This document shows positions 1,255 through 55,458 of a DNA stretch of 64,000 nt, piece after piece. This DNA comes from Dehalococcoidia bacterium. Its GTDB lineage: Bacteria > Chloroflexota > Dehalococcoidia > Plut-88900. The translations under genes were made by a program, and so were the position numbers. The notes below the pieces were generated by a model. It made no database searches. It saw nothing but the letters and a program-made list of their open reading frames with translations, and had not been told where the DNA came from. Each line of letters opens with the position of its first letter. Position 1 is the stretch's first letter. The stretch is taken from contig CBDBLV010000005.1 in the NCBI GenBank assembly GCA_965207225.1, forward strand, positions 736,001-800,000. Direction: 5' to 3'.

Positions 1255-1466
1255 CTATATCCTCCTGGCTTTGGGGAACAAGCCCAATCATAGCGGCATG
1301 GGACATACTCGACAAGCCTGGATGTAAGTAGCTTCTAATGCCCACCCCCCGACTCCCCTGTCATTCCGATACCCCGCGAGGAATCTGGGGTGGGGTCCAT
1401 CCCCCCAGTACCAAACTAGAGGCAGAGGTTGGCGCTTATGCGCCAACCTCTGCCTCTGTTTTTTCT

Positions 1467-1566: not shown

Positions 1567-1595
1567 TTGACATACAAACATTTGAGCTTTATATT
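1567..1595 (+). promoter_or_regulatory. sigma70-type promoter of repeated ncRNA-like element, copy 1
   Basis: TTGACA (1567-1572), 17-nt spacer, TATATT (1590-1595); same arrangement in copy 2. Confidence 0.85.
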
Positions 1596-1601
1596 TGTTC
1601 T

Positions 1602-2400
1602 AAGTCTAGACCCGACACCAACCTTAAGGAGGAATCGAAAACTCAGGGGAACAACCCCGGCGCCCGGAGGACTCAACGCCCTAGCCCATCCCAATGCCTC
1701 CCCTCTCCCCGTAGGGGGCGACCGGCCAATCGCCCCCCTTACTAGGAGAGCAGGCTGCGGCACAAGCGACAGTCGCCATCTCCTCCACCCCAATCCCGAT
1801 CCATCACATTCCCCTGTCCCCCAGGCGATGGAAAGACGCCCTGGATAGAAGCCACAGCGGACCGGCCATTCCCCCGCCGAGAGATCCTCTCGGTGGCTGG
1901 TTAGCAGCGAGCTTACGCTATATCAAGCTAGGGGTGGGACGGACTGGCTATCCCCGCCCGGGACTGGCTCCCGGAGGTTGGCCCGTAGGCGAGCTTACGC
2001 CATATCAAGCAAGGGGAAAGGCGGGCCGGCTCTACCCCGCCGGGACCGGTTCCCGGGGGTCGGCCTGCCGGCGAGCTTGAGCCATATCAAGCGAGGGGTT
2101 TGCTGGACCACCCAGACCCGAGGGTGCGCGCCATGTAAAGTAACTCCCGGGGGCTACCCGCCGATCACTGGCCCCCACTGCGCCCTTAGGCGCCTGGGAG
2201 CGGGTCAAGGCTCGGATGTCTGCCCGGACAGCCCGTGCTCCCCATCAAGCATAAGGGTGCGGCCGGCTGCAAGTTCCTCCGCCTGCGTGGTGGAGCGGAC
2301 CCTCCATGGCCCCCGACAGCCGGAACACCGCAGAAGAGTGGAGGCCAACGGCTCGCCAGGTGCGTCTTCCATCGCCGCCCCAAAACCCCACCAGACAGAA
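1602..2400 (+). ncRNA. Candidate large structured ncRNA, copy 1 (family unknown)
   Basis: No credible ORF; own promoter; helix 1824-1844/2356-2376; three 82-nt modules; pairing-preserving differences versus copy at ~47.3-48.1 kb; ends approximate. Confidence 0.7.
1907..2098 (+). repeat. Three 28-nt direct repeats GCGAGCTTnnGCyATATCAAGCnAGGGG, period 82 nt
   Basis: Copies at 1907-1934, 1989-2016, 2071-2098. Confidence 0.95.
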
Positions 2401-2567
2401 CCCAAACCCGAAACCTCACAACCGAATAAAGCCTCGATGCGTCACAACCTACCAAAAGAGTTTAGCCACTCGCACGAATCGCCGACGGGGAGTATCATTC
2501 GCGTTGTACGGGACTCGCTTCTCGTGCATGTGGCCCGCTCTAGCGTGGGAAGGCGTGTGAAACAGAT

Positions 2568-3551
2568 ATGAGCGCCGTCATTATCGATGGCCGCCGGATC
2601 GCCGATAATGTCCGGCTGGGCGTTAAATATGGCGTTCAGGAGCTGAAATCCAAGACGGGGGTCGTGCCGGGCCTCGCTGTGGTCCTTGTTTCCGACGACC
2701 CCGCCTCCAGCAGGTACGTTGCTGCCAAGGAGAGGGCCGCCGAGGAGTCCGGCATCTACTCCCAGACTTTCAAACTCCCCGCCAGCACCTCCGAACCCGA
2801 CCTCCTGGACTTCATCGAACGCCTCAACCACGACGACCGGTTCCACGGCATCCTCATCCAGTTCCCCGTCCCGCACGGCATCGACATGCTCAACGTCATC
2901 AACGCCGTTGACCCCATGAAAGACATCGAGGGCCTTCACCCCCTGGATGTGGGCTGGCTCCTGGCCGGAGAGCCCAGATTCGTGCCCTGCACCCCCGCAG
3001 GCATCCATCGAATGCTGGTCTCCATTGGCCACCACCCGGACGGAAAGCACGTAGTGGTGGTCGGCGGTAGCCTCATCGTCGGCCGACCCCTCGCCGCCCT
3101 TCTTCTCCAGGAAAAGCCCTGGGCCAACGCTACCGTTACCATCTGCCATCTCGGCACCACGGACGTCCCCAGCATCACCCGCATGGCCGACATCCTCGTG
3201 GTCGCTACTGGCAACCCCCAGGGCATAACCGGGGACATGGTCAAGAAGGGCGCAGTTGTAGTGGACGTCGGGATACACGCCATCCCGGACCCGACCAGAA
3301 AGAAAGGCTACCGCATCGTCGGCGACGTGGACTACGACTCCGTGAAGGAGAAGGCCCTTGCCATAACTCCCGTGCCGGGAGGTGTGGGAGTAATGACCGT
3401 CGCTATGCTGATGGTCAACACCCTGAAGGCGGCCAGGCTTTCAGCCGAGCCCGTGCTGCCTCCCTTCAGGATCGAGGACTACATGCACATCCGCCCCAGG
3501 TACGACACCGCCCACACCTACCTGACCTACCGGGACCCTACCAGCCGATAG
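2568..3551 (+). CDS. folD: Bifunctional methylene-THF dehydrogenase/cyclohydrolase (divergent, C-terminally extended)
   Basis: IIDG start, YxxxK, GILIQFP, PCTPAG, VVVDVGI, TPVPGGVG motifs. Confidence 0.92.
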   Translation: MSAVIIDGRRIADNVRLGVKYGVQELKSKTGVVPGLAVVLVSDDPASSRYVAAKERAAEESGIYSQTFKLPASTSEPDLLDFIERLNHDDRFHGILIQFPVPHGIDMLNVINAVDPMKDIEGLHPLDVGWLLAGEPRFVPCTPAGIHRMLVSIGHHPDGKHVVVVGGSLIVGRPLAALLLQEKPWANATVTICHLGTTDVPSITRMADILVVATGNPQGITGDMVKKGAVVVDVGIHAIPDPTRKKGYRIVGDVDYDSVKEKALAITPVPGGVGVMTVAMLMVNTLKAARLSAEPVLPPFRIEDYMHIRPRYDTAHTYLTYRDPTSR

Positions 3552-45930: not shown

Positions 45931-46017
45931 TGGTGCCGAAGCCCGGACTCGAACCGGGACAGGGTTTCCCCCAGCGGTTTTTGAGACCGCCGCGTCTGCC
46001 TATTCCGCCACTTCGGC
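45931..46017 (-). tRNA. tRNA-Leu(CAA)
   Basis: GCCGAAG acceptor stem, GCGGT-CTCAAAA-ACCGC anticodon arm, long variable arm, GTTCGAGT, CCA. Confidence 0.95.
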
Positions 46018-46043
46018 CTAACCCGCCTGCGGGCTTAAATGGA

Positions 46044-46119
<76 letters not shown>

Positions 46120-46231: not shown

Positions 46232-47104
46232 TTGACCAAGTCCCTCAACGTTGCCTCCCTATCCCCCGGCGACGGCAAGTCCACCATAATCGCCGCCCTC
46301 GCCCGACACTTCCAGTCCCTCGGCAAGACCGTCGATTGCTCCGCCCCCGACCCCATGAAATCCCTCCTCGGCCTCTCCGACTCCCCTCCCAACCCCGACA
46401 TCCTCATCACCGATTCCTCCGACTCCCAATCCGACGCCTCCCTCCTTGTTGTCTCCTTCTCCCGTGACCTCGACCTCGACGCCGTAAAACCCGCAGCCAA
46501 TGCTCTTGGCGACGGTTTTCTCGGCGTCATCATCAACCGTGTCCCCACCTACGGCGCCCGACTCGCCGAAAACACCCTCAAGCCCTCCCTTGAAGCCGCC
46601 GGCCTCACTGTCCTCGGCCTGGTCCCTGAATCCCGGGCCCTGTACGGCATCACCGTCGACGACCTCATCAACCGCCTCGACGCCCGCTACGCCCTCCAGC
46701 TCGAAAGCGGCGACGCCCTCGTGGAGCACGTCATGGTCGGCGCCAACGTCCTCGATGCCGAGGACTTCCCCGCCGGCCCCGAGTACTACGCCCAGCGCTC
46801 CAACAAGGCCGTCATCGGCCGAGGTGACCGCCCCGACTTCCACTGGAGCGCCATCGACACCCCCACCCGCTGCGTCATCCTCACCGGCAACTTCGAACCC
46901 ATCCCCTACCTCCTCGCCAAGGCCGAGGAGCGCCAGGTCCCCGTCGCCGTCGTAGATAAAGACACCCTGGACGTCATGGACACCCTCGAAGACATCTTCA
47001 ACGGCCCCTCCCTGGACTCCGGTGCCAAGCTCACCGCCTTCACCTCCCTCATCGAAAGCTCCGTCGACACCTCTGCCCTCGACTCAGCCCTGGGCGTAAA
47101 CTAG
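46232..47104 (+). CDS. DRTGG-domain protein (phosphotransacetylase N-terminal-like)
   Basis: P-loop GDGKST, GVIINRVP, GDRPD, CVILTG. Confidence 0.82.
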   Translation: MTKSLNVASLSPGDGKSTIIAALARHFQSLGKTVDCSAPDPMKSLLGLSDSPPNPDILITDSSDSQSDASLLVVSFSRDLDLDAVKPAANALGDGFLGVIINRVPTYGARLAENTLKPSLEAAGLTVLGLVPESRALYGITVDDLINRLDARYALQLESGDALVEHVMVGANVLDAEDFPAGPEYYAQRSNKAVIGRGDRPDFHWSAIDTPTRCVILTGNFEPIPYLLAKAEERQVPVAVVDKDTLDVMDTLEDIFNGPSLDSGAKLTAFTSLIESSVDTSALDSALGVN

Positions 47105-47240
47105 CTCCCACAACAGTCTCGCTCCCATAGACCCGCCCCCCATCCCTTCTCCAACATCCAACCCCCAACCCCCTCCCCATCCATCATTCCCGACCCCGAT
47201 CGGAAATCCATCCCCCTCCCCCCCAAATGTGACATACCCC

Positions 47241-47269
47241 TTGACATGCAAACATTTGAGCCTTATATT
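47241..47269 (+). promoter_or_regulatory. sigma70-type promoter of repeated ncRNA-like element, copy 2
   Basis: TTGACA (47241-47246), 17 nt, TATATT (47264-47269). Confidence 0.85.
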
Positions 47270-47275
47270 TGTTCT

Positions 47276-48060
47276 AAGTCTAGACCCAACACTAATTTTA
47301 AGGAGGAACCAAAAACCCGGGGAAGCCCCCGAGACCCGACCCGAGGACTCAACGCCCTAGCCCATCCCAAGACCTCGCCCCTCTCTTGTAGGGGCGACCG
47401 GCCAATCGCCCCCCCTTGCGAGGAAGGAAGGTTGCGGCACAAGCGAACGTCGCCATCTCCTCATCCCACCGGGTCCCGTGCTCCTTCCCTGGTAGTCAGG
47501 CGATGGAAAGACGCCCTGGATAGAAGCCACAGCGGACCGGCCATTCCCCCGCCGAGAGACCCTCTCGGTGGCTGGTTAGCAGCGAGCTTACGCTATATCA
47601 AGCTAGGGGTGGGACGGACCGGCCATCCCCGCCCGGGACTGGCTTCCGGAGGTTGGCCCGTAGGCGAGCTTACGCCATATCAAGCAAGGGGAAATGCGGG
47701 CCGGCTCTACCCCGCCGGGACCGGTTCCCGGGGGTTGGCCCGCCGGCGAGCTTGCGCCATATCAAGCGAGGGGTTTGCTGGACCGCCCAGACCCGAGGGT
47801 GCGCGCCACGTAAAGTAACTCCCGGGGGCTACCCGCCGATCACTGGCCCCCACTGCGCCCTTAGGCGCCTGGGAGCGGGTCAAGGCCCGGCTGTCCGCCC
47901 GAACACCCGGGCACACATCGGGCAGAAGGGTGCGGCCGGCTGCAATCCGCCCCCCGGCGGACCTCCATGGCCCCCGACAGCCGAGCACCGCAAGAGAGTG
48001 GAGGCCACCGGCTCACCAGGTGCGTCTTCCATCGCCGCCCCAAAACCCACCAGACAGAAC
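47276..48060 (+). ncRNA. Candidate large structured ncRNA, copy 2 (family unknown)
   Basis: Paralog of 1602-2400; helix 47499-47519/48016-48036; ends approximate. Confidence 0.7.
47582..47773 (+). repeat. Three 28-nt direct repeats, period 82 nt
   Basis: Copies at 47582-47609, 47664-47691, 47746-47773. Confidence 0.95.
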
Positions 48061-48127
48061 GGAAACCAAAACCCACAACTGAATAGCAATCCGGTGTCTC
48101 CCCTGCTTCCCCAGCAGACACGCACAG

Positions 48128-48156
48128 TTGCCAGCCTCCGCCTTGATTTATATAAT
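48128..48156 (+). promoter_or_regulatory. sigma70-type promoter of speD-speE
   Basis: TTGCCA-17 nt-TATAAT. Confidence 0.75.
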
Positions 48157-48199
48157 GCGTCCTCTACGCGTGTGTAAATCCACTACGGGGGGCGGGTGA

Positions 48200-48574
48200 T
48201 TGAATGTCCTCGGAAACCACTTACTGCTGGAACTGAAGAACTGCGACAGCGTCCTCTTGGACGACCTGCCCTACGTTAGAGATGCCCTCATCTCCGCCGC
48301 CGAGCAGATGGGCGCCCGGGTCCTCGGCGAGTCCTTCCACAAGTTCCACCCCCAGGGCGTGACCGGCGTAGTCCCCATCTCCGAGTCTCACCTCTGCATC
48401 CACACATGGCCCGAGCACCGCTACGCCGCCGTAGACGTCTTCACCTGCAGCCAGACCTTCGACCCCCACCGCGTCGCCGAATTCCTCATCGACAAATTCG
48501 ACTGTAAGGACCCGTCCTTGATTGTCGTCAATCGGGGTATCCTCACCCCGGTCCCGGTCTCCCTCGGCTCCTAG
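48200..48574 (+). CDS. speD: S-adenosylmethionine decarboxylase proenzyme
   Basis: GVTG...SESH.CIHTWPE..YAAVDVFTC. Confidence 0.93.
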   Translation: MNVLGNHLLLELKNCDSVLLDDLPYVRDALISAAEQMGARVLGESFHKFHPQGVTGVVPISESHLCIHTWPEHRYAAVDVFTCSQTFDPHRVAEFLIDKFDCKDPSLIVVNRGILTPVPVSLGS

Positions 48575-55383: not shown

Positions 55384-55458
55384 TGGAGCGGGCGAAGGGA
55401 TTCGAACCCTCGACCTCCTGCTTGGGAAGCAGACACTCTACCGCTGAGTTACGCCCGC
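55384..55458 (-). tRNA. tRNA-Gly(CCC)
   Basis: GCGGGCG acceptor, CTGCT-TCCCA-AGCAG anticodon arm, GTTCGAAT, CCA. Confidence 0.95.

Follow-up and report, generated by a model that had tools for sequence, protein, structure and literature searches.

The DNA analyzed here is a 64,000-nucleotide (nt) stretch of contig CBDBLV010000005.1 from a Dehalococcoidia bacterium (the window). It carries an intergenic element at 47215-48085 (copy 2) that repeats positions 1545-2428 (copy 1), with a BLAST identity of 88% over 866 nt (47220-48085). Copy 2 very probably belongs to a family of self-contained transcription units that is confined to one genus, each unit consisting of a promoter and a structured RNA. 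For our best reading as a whole, identity and mechanism together, namely a genus-specific promoter-plus-structured-RNA cassette propagated as DNA, we estimate a probability of roughly 0.5. The mechanism taken by itself, a portable promoter-plus-leader cassette that would act mainly in cis, is offered tentatively and at less than even odds. A preliminary description of this DNA had presented copies 1 and 2 as a two-paralog system. The second copy is indeed real. However, the two copies turned out to be 2 of 41 family members in the genome, which has 40 complete units and 1 interrupted unit.

Range and anatomy of the units

The census was carried out by BLAST and iterated nhmmer over the whole genome of the window (G000; 4.03 Mb, 5 contigs), and eight congeners and three sister genera of the same family were compared with it. 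The complete units were 362 to 841 nt long, and the remaining one was split by an insertion sequence. All 41 copies in this genome lay outside called genes, except for one overlap that was an artifact of the heuristic. An 18-nt core, AAGGAGGAACCAAAAACC, was found with at most 1 mismatch at 34 sites in this genome and at 14 to 43 sites in each of the eight congeners, and core variants summed to about 277 over the nine genomes of the genus. The core was absent from the three sister genera, and a control with the reversed pattern gave 0 to 2 sites. Similarly, the 5' domain had BLAST matches in 8 of 8 congeners, whereas of the other genera in the family 0 of 3 gave one. Weak BLAST matches in two genomes of other families (G033 and G038, among 29 genomes searched) were 25- to 44-nt fragments and were rejected as elements. 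An exact-pattern scan of the species collection returned 92 stretches, and the records listed were all titled MAG: Dehalococcoidia bacterium. The family is restricted to one genus of uncultured Dehalococcoidia, and its copies stand mostly before housekeeping genes. Our literature search, limited in extent, turned up no title on such an element in Dehalococcoidia or sponge Chloroflexi. Rfam 15 covariance models, applied at the gathering score to the 64-kb window and to 16 further loci (95.7 kb), matched tRNAs alone; at E values up to 10 within 47150-48200, the best matches were to eukaryotic families, at an E value of 4.8 or more. About 0.6% of these genomes (40 units of about 600 nt in 4.03 Mb) is thus an unannotated RNA family, which calls for caution among annotators.

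The order of parts in a unit is a near-consensus sigma-70 promoter, a class-specific leader of about 25 to 30 nt, the core, a domain called P1, a helix called P2 around a variable cargo, and a C/A-rich, G-poor tail. The coordinates in the window are given in Table 1. Upstream -35 and -10 boxes were found in 40 of 40 units, all on the + (RNA) strand. The + strand promoter of the preliminary description was recovered in both copies with 11 of 12 matches, and two such sites were found in the region compared with 0.2±0.4 in shuffles. The promoters fall into three classes with 11, 18, and 11 sites in the genome, and no site stands apart from an element; class A, to which both window copies belong, has 11 sites, each with an element. 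The repeated unit takes in the promoter as well as about 100 nt on its upstream side.

The core was found with at most 2 mismatches in 38 of 40 elements. The 3' end of the host 16S rRNA reads ...CACCTCCTT, and the core is complementary to it; in the copies inspected, AAGGAGG precedes AACCAAAAACC and then CAG or CGG. As in a STAB-SD motif, the Shine-Dalgarno complement lies near the 5' end and no start codon follows 5 to 10 nt downstream. On the - strand, window positions 47333-47316 in the core region form a 7-bp G+C hairpin followed by TTTTTGG. This terminator-like site could stop antisense transcription; one such site is the chance level (1.6±1.3 in shuffles).

The length of P1 varied from 66 to 308 nt among 77 elements, and insertions of whole hairpins account for the variation. 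Its outer stem, GGGAAG/CTTCCC in the family, encloses nested, optional hairpins totaling between 0 and about 240 nt. Stem variants agreed between the two strands (CAGGGGAA/TTCCCCTG and TAGGGAAG/CTTCCCTA are examples); the stem is highly conserved, and swapping partners between elements changed the pairing only from 7.6 bp (own) to 7.4 bp (swapped). A 16-nt hairpin, CCCCGAGA(C/A)(G/A)TCGGGG, was found at positions that differ between copies, on one or the other side of P1 (e.g., C5_1314838 and C1_175765), as if independently inserted.

The P2 helix, GGCGATGGA...TCCATCGCC, surrounds at least seven kinds of cargo. Its extension was GGTCC/GGACC in 51 cases and GACGC/GCGTC in 25, and mixed forms were found in 0 of 76. 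Since these forms travel with the cargo (matched in 76 of 76), they count as few events. Both window copies have the long-type cargo, which is carried by 5 units in this genome and was found in 8 of 9 genomes of the genus at an E value of ≤1e-20. In an alignment of 26 long-type sequences, 17 had two 82-nt modules and 9 had three, and a conserved loop motif is present two or three times in this cargo. The 3' domain of this cargo contains a hairpin allele at 47946-47961.

In the tail, 43 of 45 positions were identical to those of the ortholog in the congener G008. Two tail alleles, GACCCAAAACCC... and GACCCCCTCCAAAAC..., were seen; the second has CCTCC (11 of 40 tails). From their sequence, the CCTCC tails could pair with the 5' AAGGAGG of the core and close the RNA end to end. 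The 3' hairpin extension beyond the tail was identical to that of G008 at 40 of 42 positions, and kindred hairpins follow other elements of the ...GAATA type.

TABLE 1 Features of copy 2, its neighbor, and copy 1 in the window
Feature	Position	Strand	Remarks
Upstream part of inserted block	47105..47240	+	C-rich short-repeat spacer, from the stop of the DRTGG/CbiA-domain gene (Pfam) to the promoter; missing from the 79-nt spacer of G001, G002, and G006
Class A promoter	47241..47269	+	TTGACA, 17-nt spacer, TATATT; 11/12 matches
Invariant core AAGGAGGAACCAAAAACC	47300..47317	+	Perfect Shine-Dalgarno complement, without start codon downstream
P1 domain	47318..47494	+	Outer stem GGGGAAG/CTTCCCT, nested optional hairpins
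P2 closing helix, 5' strand	47499..47519	+	10-nt perfect inverted repeat with 48027-48036
Three tandem 82-nt modules, long-type cargo	47582..47827	+	Direct-repeat family D1, 77% and 62% identity to first unit
Cargo 3' domain	47775..47967	+	Hairpin H4, three-way junction, hairpins H6 and H7; covariance model R1, alignment A4
P2 closing helix, 3' strand	48016..48036	+	
C/A-rich, G-poor tail ending ...CACAACTGAATA	48037..48085	+	Conserved in 41 nhmmer matches
3' hairpin extension, end of inserted block	48086..48127	+	GGTGTCT...AGACAC; in occupied, not empty, sites
Own promoter of AdoMet-decarboxylase gene	48128..48156	+	TTGCCA, 17-nt spacer, TATAAT; 11/12 matches; outside the element
AdoMet-decarboxylase gene, neighbor of copy 2	48200..48574	+	Pfam PF02675, E=9e-38
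Copy 1	1567..2428	+	Class A promoter 1567-1595, core 1626-1643, P2 strands 1824-1844 and 2356-2376, tail to 2428; upstream of folD (Pfam)

The fold and its strand

A MAFFT alignment displaced several helices by 1 to 2 columns, and the RNAalifold consensus on it had double changes at 9 of 103 pairs. Because of these shifts, a covariance model of the cargo 3' domain was built from a hand-checked structure, and 50 matches from the genus, 39 of them distinct, were realigned with it; the covariation evidence covers this one cargo domain. Changes on both sides were found at 29 of 44 pairs, a count somewhat inflated by the fitting of the alignment (A4) to the model structure, compared with 15.6±2.0 in shuffles (0 of 500 reached 29) and at most 15 when the partners were slid. 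Pairing was observed in 89.7% of the cells, against 77.9±0.5% after shuffling and 38 to 53% with slid partners. The covariation score was 0.324, with 0.148 for shuffled alignments and at most 0.106 for slid partners. Single-sequence folds gave the same three-way junction from unlike sequences, such as CUCCC/GGGAG and UCUGA/UCAGA, or GCGCC/GGCGC and AUGCC/GGCAU.

The pairing also points to a strand. Read on the + strand, the helices of the cargo 3' domain had 158 G-U cells and 27 A-C cells, and the ratios in the module helices were 40:5, 79:0, and 79:11. C-to-U variation was about 1.5 to 1.7 times commoner than G-to-A, in paired and unpaired columns alike. Therefore, mutational bias does not explain the G-U excess. 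Together, the covariation, the G-U excess, the low mutational bias, and the location of 40 of 40 promoters on that strand support selection on the fold of the + strand RNA. The preliminary description had claimed such selection in both paralogs. Selection on + strand RNA structure stands, with the family as its basis, but its restriction to two paralogs does not, as these are 2 of 41 members.

Each tandem module has a 5' arm (X) and a 3' arm (X'). The preliminary description had paired X with its own X', an arrangement in which A-C mismatches occurred in 5 and 11 of 26 sequences. When X' of one module was paired with X of the next, A-C was found in 0 of 208 cells, and one covarying pair was UA in 11, UG in 9, and CG in 5. 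The changes between copies 1 and 2 are compatible with both registers. Judging from these alignments, pairing of X' with the next X appears better supported than the earlier register.

The comparison of the two window copies gave a more limited picture. All the base changes named in the preliminary description were found where it had placed them: GGACTGGCT at 1941-1949 in copy 1 and GGACCGGCC at 47616-47624 in copy 2 for the outer helix, TCCCGG and TTCCGG (copy 2, 47645) for the inner helix, GGGTCGGCCTGC and GGGTTGGCCCGC (copy 2, 47736 and 47741) in module 3, and CACCC and CGCCC (copy 2, 47785). The hairpins at 2277-2295 and 47946-47961 also differ, but this is a swap of two alleles that recur throughout the family rather than a replacement. 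Stepwise compensation from copy 1 to copy 2 could not be upheld because the copies are mosaics: the tract 47500-47880 had just 10 substitutions (97.4% identity), and the flanking blocks were 45 to 80% identical. Six of the 10 substitutions lie in stems, with pairing preserved via G-U on the + strand, 3 lie in loops or linkers, and the one at 47755 disrupts a 4-bp GGCG/CGCC stem in copy 1. Pairing-consistent changes thus made up 6 of 7 in stems. Taken by itself, this ratio is no more than suggestive, since a random transition at a Watson-Crick pair retains pairing about half of the time.

Insertion, module exchange, and neighboring genes

The site of copy 2 was compared across the genus. The spacer upstream of the S-adenosylmethionine (AdoMet) decarboxylase gene was 79 nt long and free of the element in G001, G002, and G006, where a promoter homologous to the gene's own promoter was present. 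The same spacer was 1,095 nt in G000, 1,292 nt in G007, and more than 1,500 nt in G008 and G005. The orthologous site is therefore empty in three congeners and occupied in four genomes, and the occupied sites bear units of three cargo kinds. At this site the promoter is of class A in G000 and class C in G008, with the same P1 and cargo; at the folD site there are three modules in G000 and two in G008. That the unit is an insertion, and that the copies are recombination mosaics between which modules are exchanged, is well supported. Copying as DNA is favored because, as noted above, the repeated unit takes in the promoter and some sequence upstream of it.

No inverted pair was found to join the ends of the inserted block, 47105-48127, and the two junctions have at most the 3-nt CAC in common, which is too short to count as a target-site duplication. 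A MITE, which has terminal inverted repeats and a target-site duplication, was therefore rejected. The left junction at 47095-47114 (...CTCCCACAAC) resembles the 3' tail of the element at 48060-48079 (...ACCCACAAC); judged from sequence, this likeness may reflect either a leftover from an earlier copy or microhomology used at insertion. As to a group II intron or retroelement RNA, no Rfam intron model was matched, reverse-transcriptase genes were not searched for, and the candidate was set aside. At G000:C1:66886-70083, the element is split within P1 by a 2.6-kb insertion with frames of 526 and 264 amino acids (aa) and repeated TGGCTCAATGTT-like ends. By eye, we take the two frames to resemble IstA and IstB of IS21.

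Identity to the G008 ortholog was 89.8% in P1, 88.6% in the cargo, 95.6% in the tail, and 95.2% in the 3' hairpin, and third codon positions of the neighboring gene were 82.3% identical between the two genomes.

Among 39 units, 36 were co-oriented with the next gene and 3 were convergent (Pfam); one further unit lies at a contig end. The 36 co-oriented calls comprise 27 made by a heuristic rule based on G+C content at third codon positions (GC3), 8 confirmed by Pfam, and 1 found by Pfam where the rule called no gene (MnmA). The next genes are unrelated. Those named by Pfam include RpoB, peptide deformylase, MnmA, FolD, two peptidases, a radical-SAM enzyme, an amidohydrolase, and a 2-hydroxyacid dehydrogenase. 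Others, judged by eye, are presumably NusA, LeuRS, GlnRS, GyrB, S15, and RecA.

The units differ in how they end. A conserved terminator module with a 14-bp stem lies 31 to 182 nt after 12 of 40 units, which end in ...GAACA. About half of the units end in ...GAATA and then have a hairpin of about 45 nt placed directly against the -35 box of the next gene's own promoter. Where the terminator module is missing, the next gene begins about 40 to 180 nt on and has its own promoter. Genes for Rho and RNase J are both present in the genome.

Several other repeats were seen around the units. The terminator module is itself a repeat family (window 1417-1458; 148 sites genome-wide) with a 14- to 19-bp stem followed by a T run, and the stem varies by matched arms (GAGGTTGGCGC/GCGCCAACCTC and AAGCGCCTGCGCC/GGCGCAGGCGCTT). 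Tandem TTCAATCAA repeats, 2 to 6 units about 11 nt apart, follow a conserved GGCGTCATTCAATCAAAACAGCTACGAG block at 31 loci genome-wide and lie a short way upstream of many genes (in G000, for instance, downstream of C5:315870 and C3:141919). These arrays are a separate interspersed module that may bind a protein. Small REP-like hairpin repeats, GTCATTCC...GGAATC (window 1361-1386), occur at about 210 intergenic sites, often several in a row. Between element C5_67664 (G000:C5) and its next gene, a promoter-like block, TTGTACACCCCCGACCCTCGGGGTAGA, is present in tandem duplicate. Three tRNA genes lie on the - strand of the window at 45934-46119 and 55387-55458; two of them lie side by side, immediately upstream of the DRTGG/CbiA-domain gene.

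Mechanism, alternatives, and known systems

In the proposed mechanism, the strong promoter of a unit would fire toward the next gene, and the compact fold would render the transcript long-lived and inert. The Shine-Dalgarno-like core would either bind 30S subunits, shielding the 5' end from RNase J, or pair within the RNA, and the C-rich tail would serve Rho. In 12 of 40 units, the terminator module would yield a free-standing RNA; in about half of the units, read-through past the hairpin would add to or modulate the expression of the neighbor. That the units multiply and reshuffle as DNA, by insertion beside promoters and by module exchange, belongs to the well-supported part of the reading. 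Shielding by the core in the STAB-SD manner is suggested by analogy; the predicted inaccessibility of the core and the CCTCC in 11 of 40 tails argue against it.

Several observations weigh against this cassette reading, in addition to the inflated pair counts noted above. The downstream genes keep their own promoters and 12 of 40 units have a strong terminator, so read-through is not needed for downstream expression and a free-standing RNA is fitted equally well. Selection against head-on transcription could by itself account for the co-orientation. The mean predicted probability that the core is unpaired was 0.36, compared with 0.45 for the whole RNA, and exceeded 0.5 in just 3 of 40 units. 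The best identity between paralogs within the genome was 93.7%, so that no recent movement or copying is visible. Constraint beyond that expected from third codon positions is modest (62 of 543 versus 22 of 124 differences). The preliminary description had proposed folding both strands with RNAalifold. In alignment A2, canonical pairs made up 94.9% on the + strand and 92.7% on the - strand, which is not decisive, as G+C-rich quasi-palindromes fold either way. The minimum free energy z-scores were weak (+ strand, -1.7; - strand, +0.7). Finally, where the RNA starts and ends, and how abundant it is, are inferences.

The units could instead be genes for trans-acting or structural noncoding RNAs. 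The RNA would then be the product, as a decoy of 30S subunits or of an RNA-binding protein or as a scaffold with cargo domains for different partners, and proximity to genes would be incidental. We regard this as possible but doubtful. It would account for dedicated promoters that occur nowhere else in the genome, for the unit's own strong terminator in 12 of 40 cases, and for the promoters retained by downstream genes. It would also suit a cargo type that is independent of the neighboring gene (three types at one orthologous site), a loop motif present two or three times in the long cargo, as often in protein-binding RNAs, and an 18-nt core that is near-invariant in nine species. However, co-orientation in 36 of 39 units would be superfluous for a pure trans-acting gene, about half of the units have no recognizable terminator, and the core is predicted to be inaccessible. 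Forty near-redundant genes for one trans function would also have no known precedent. A more far-reaching form of this idea is somewhat less probable again: a new class of abundant bacterial long noncoding RNA genes, about 15 to 45 per genome, with a common scaffold and interchangeable cargo. The scaffold would consist of the Shine-Dalgarno-like 5' core, P1, and the P2 clamp, the modules would be shuffled like protein domains, and the RNAs would engage 30S subunits or a dedicated RNA-binding protein in decoy, hibernation, or organizing roles.

Another explanation is that the units are selfish, as an intergenic mosaic repeat like BOX, BIME, or MITE that is useless to the host; the hairpins would be kept because spreading requires them or because recombination homogenizes the copies, and the promoter would be a passenger. 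The authors of a pneumococcal repeat study reached this conclusion for BOX, RUP, and SPRITE (PMC3049150). Confinement to one genus, variable presence at orthologous sites, module reassortment, small hairpins inserted at varying places, and the abundance of other interspersed modules in the genome all agree with it. Nevertheless, we consider it unlikely for the units. The symmetry of double-stranded DNA does not predict a six-fold or greater excess of G-U over A-C on the promoter strand, and 40 of 40 promoters are intact despite 6 to 20% divergence between copies. In addition, terminal inverted repeats were not found, orientation agrees with that of the next gene in 36 of 39 units, and the tail and 3' hairpin are conserved above synonymous sites.

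The remaining explanations fared far worse. Both window copies lie upstream of metabolic genes in the same direction, as would a gene-specific cis-regulator (riboswitch or attenuator) common to folD and the AdoMet-decarboxylase gene. Such a leader is very improbable and was rejected because the genes that follow the 41 copies are unrelated (they include those for RpoB, peptide deformylase, MnmA, peptidases, and a radical-SAM enzyme), three congeners lack the element at the site, cargo and promoter class vary between species at one site, and Rfam gave no match. A protein-coding gene has next to no credibility: a frame of 174 aa (47653..48177) and one of 197 aa (1978..2571) are open in register in both copies, but the homologous frame reaches the cargo end without a stop in just 6 of 26 family members, codon 54 of the G008 ortholog is a stop, 5 of 6 substitutions inside the frame alter the residue, Pfam gave 0 matches for the 4 element frames tried, single-base indels are common in the family alignment, and long open frames are expected by chance at 68% G+C.

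An assembly artifact that duplicated one locus, which the preliminary description had named as its own possible undoing, can likewise be dismissed. Short-read contigs do break at the element: contig pieces from four runs mapped to 46900-48400 stop at the repeat and none bridges it, and their depth climbs over the shared modules in this interval, as expected of a multicopy element and with no bearing on expression. However, copies 1 and 2 differ in 171 of 958 alignment columns (gaps counted), their flanks are unlike, and the same architecture was found in eight other genomes, six of them single contigs. Difference-free pieces (X1 and X3) from two runs of one study, possibly the source sample of the window itself, cover much of 46900-48400. 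Among the 23 runs listed, no RNA run had matching sequence. Some runs with matches are labeled sponge or coral metagenome; X8 (share, 0.29), the one of these that was mapped, has related, nonidentical pieces.

If the cassette reading is true, the unit would amount to an expression module that is naturally insulated (from a terminator and promoter through the 5' core and scaffold to a terminator or hairpin) and a case of large-scale promoter reuse, in which a repeat shapes core gene expression before dozens of housekeeping genes of an uncultured lineage. If the RNA is the product, this would be the largest known paralogous family of long structured RNAs in a bacterium. With hundreds of diverged natural sequences, the fold should be solvable by covariation and the rules of RNA module exchange readable.

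Known systems were compared with the units part by part. In a BOX element, the 5' and 3' boxes are conserved and the middle boxes between them vary in number, a modularity that resembles that of the present units, with common 5' and 3' modules and variable inner parts of two or three 82-nt modules. Repeats of the BOX/BIME kind are short (about 0.1 to 0.3 kb) and have no promoter of their own. The units share with this kind many intergenic copies in a narrow taxon (41 copies; found throughout the genus, in 9 of 9 genomes, and in 0 of 3 sister genera) and presence or absence at orthologous sites. By contrast, they are 362 to 841 nt long, and each has a dedicated sigma-70 promoter. BOX, with RUP and SPRITE, in Streptococcus pneumoniae (PMC3049150) is also similar in its dozens of interspersed intergenic copies in a narrow clade, its extensive secondary structure, its coexpression with neighboring genes, and its slow turnover with insertion sites that differ between strains. 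The units differ from BOX as described in their co-orientation with the next gene (36 of 39), in an unvarying 5' core, and in a closing helix whose cargo can be exchanged.

Mobile promoters (Correia, ERIC, and REPIN) resemble the units in that a repeat-borne promoter is reused before many unrelated genes (PMC3575422). Unlike them, the units had no terminal inverted repeats that we could find, their promoter drives a long conserved structured RNA rather than reading directly into a gene, and the genes beside them keep their own promoters.

The 5' core is comparable to STAB-SD: it is a strong Shine-Dalgarno complement near the predicted 5' end, without a start codon, and matches the genome's own 16S 3' end. 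The 5' stabilizer mechanism of STAB-SD was reportedly put forward by Agaisse and Lereclus in 1996. Blocking of RNase J1 by ribosomes (PMC5737220) is a further point of comparison, and an RNase J gene is present in this genome. The core differs in being predicted not to be single-stranded, and known STAB-SD cases are single mRNA leaders, not a 40-copy family.

Large structured bacterial noncoding RNAs in Rfam (OLE, GOLLD, ROOL, HEARO, and raiA) are likewise several hundred nucleotides long, have several domains, and are supported by covariation. They occur once or a few times per genome, whereas the present family is unmatched in Rfam, interspersed, and recombining. The nearest known kinds are interspersed mosaic repeats (BOX) and promoter-carrying repeats, with which the units have in common clade restriction, modularity, structure, and insertion polymorphism. 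They depart from these kinds in the complete, dedicated promoter of every copy, in a size of 0.36 to 0.84 kb, in a scaffold that stays fixed while the cargo is exchanged, in the lack of terminal inverted repeats, and in a near-uniform orientation.

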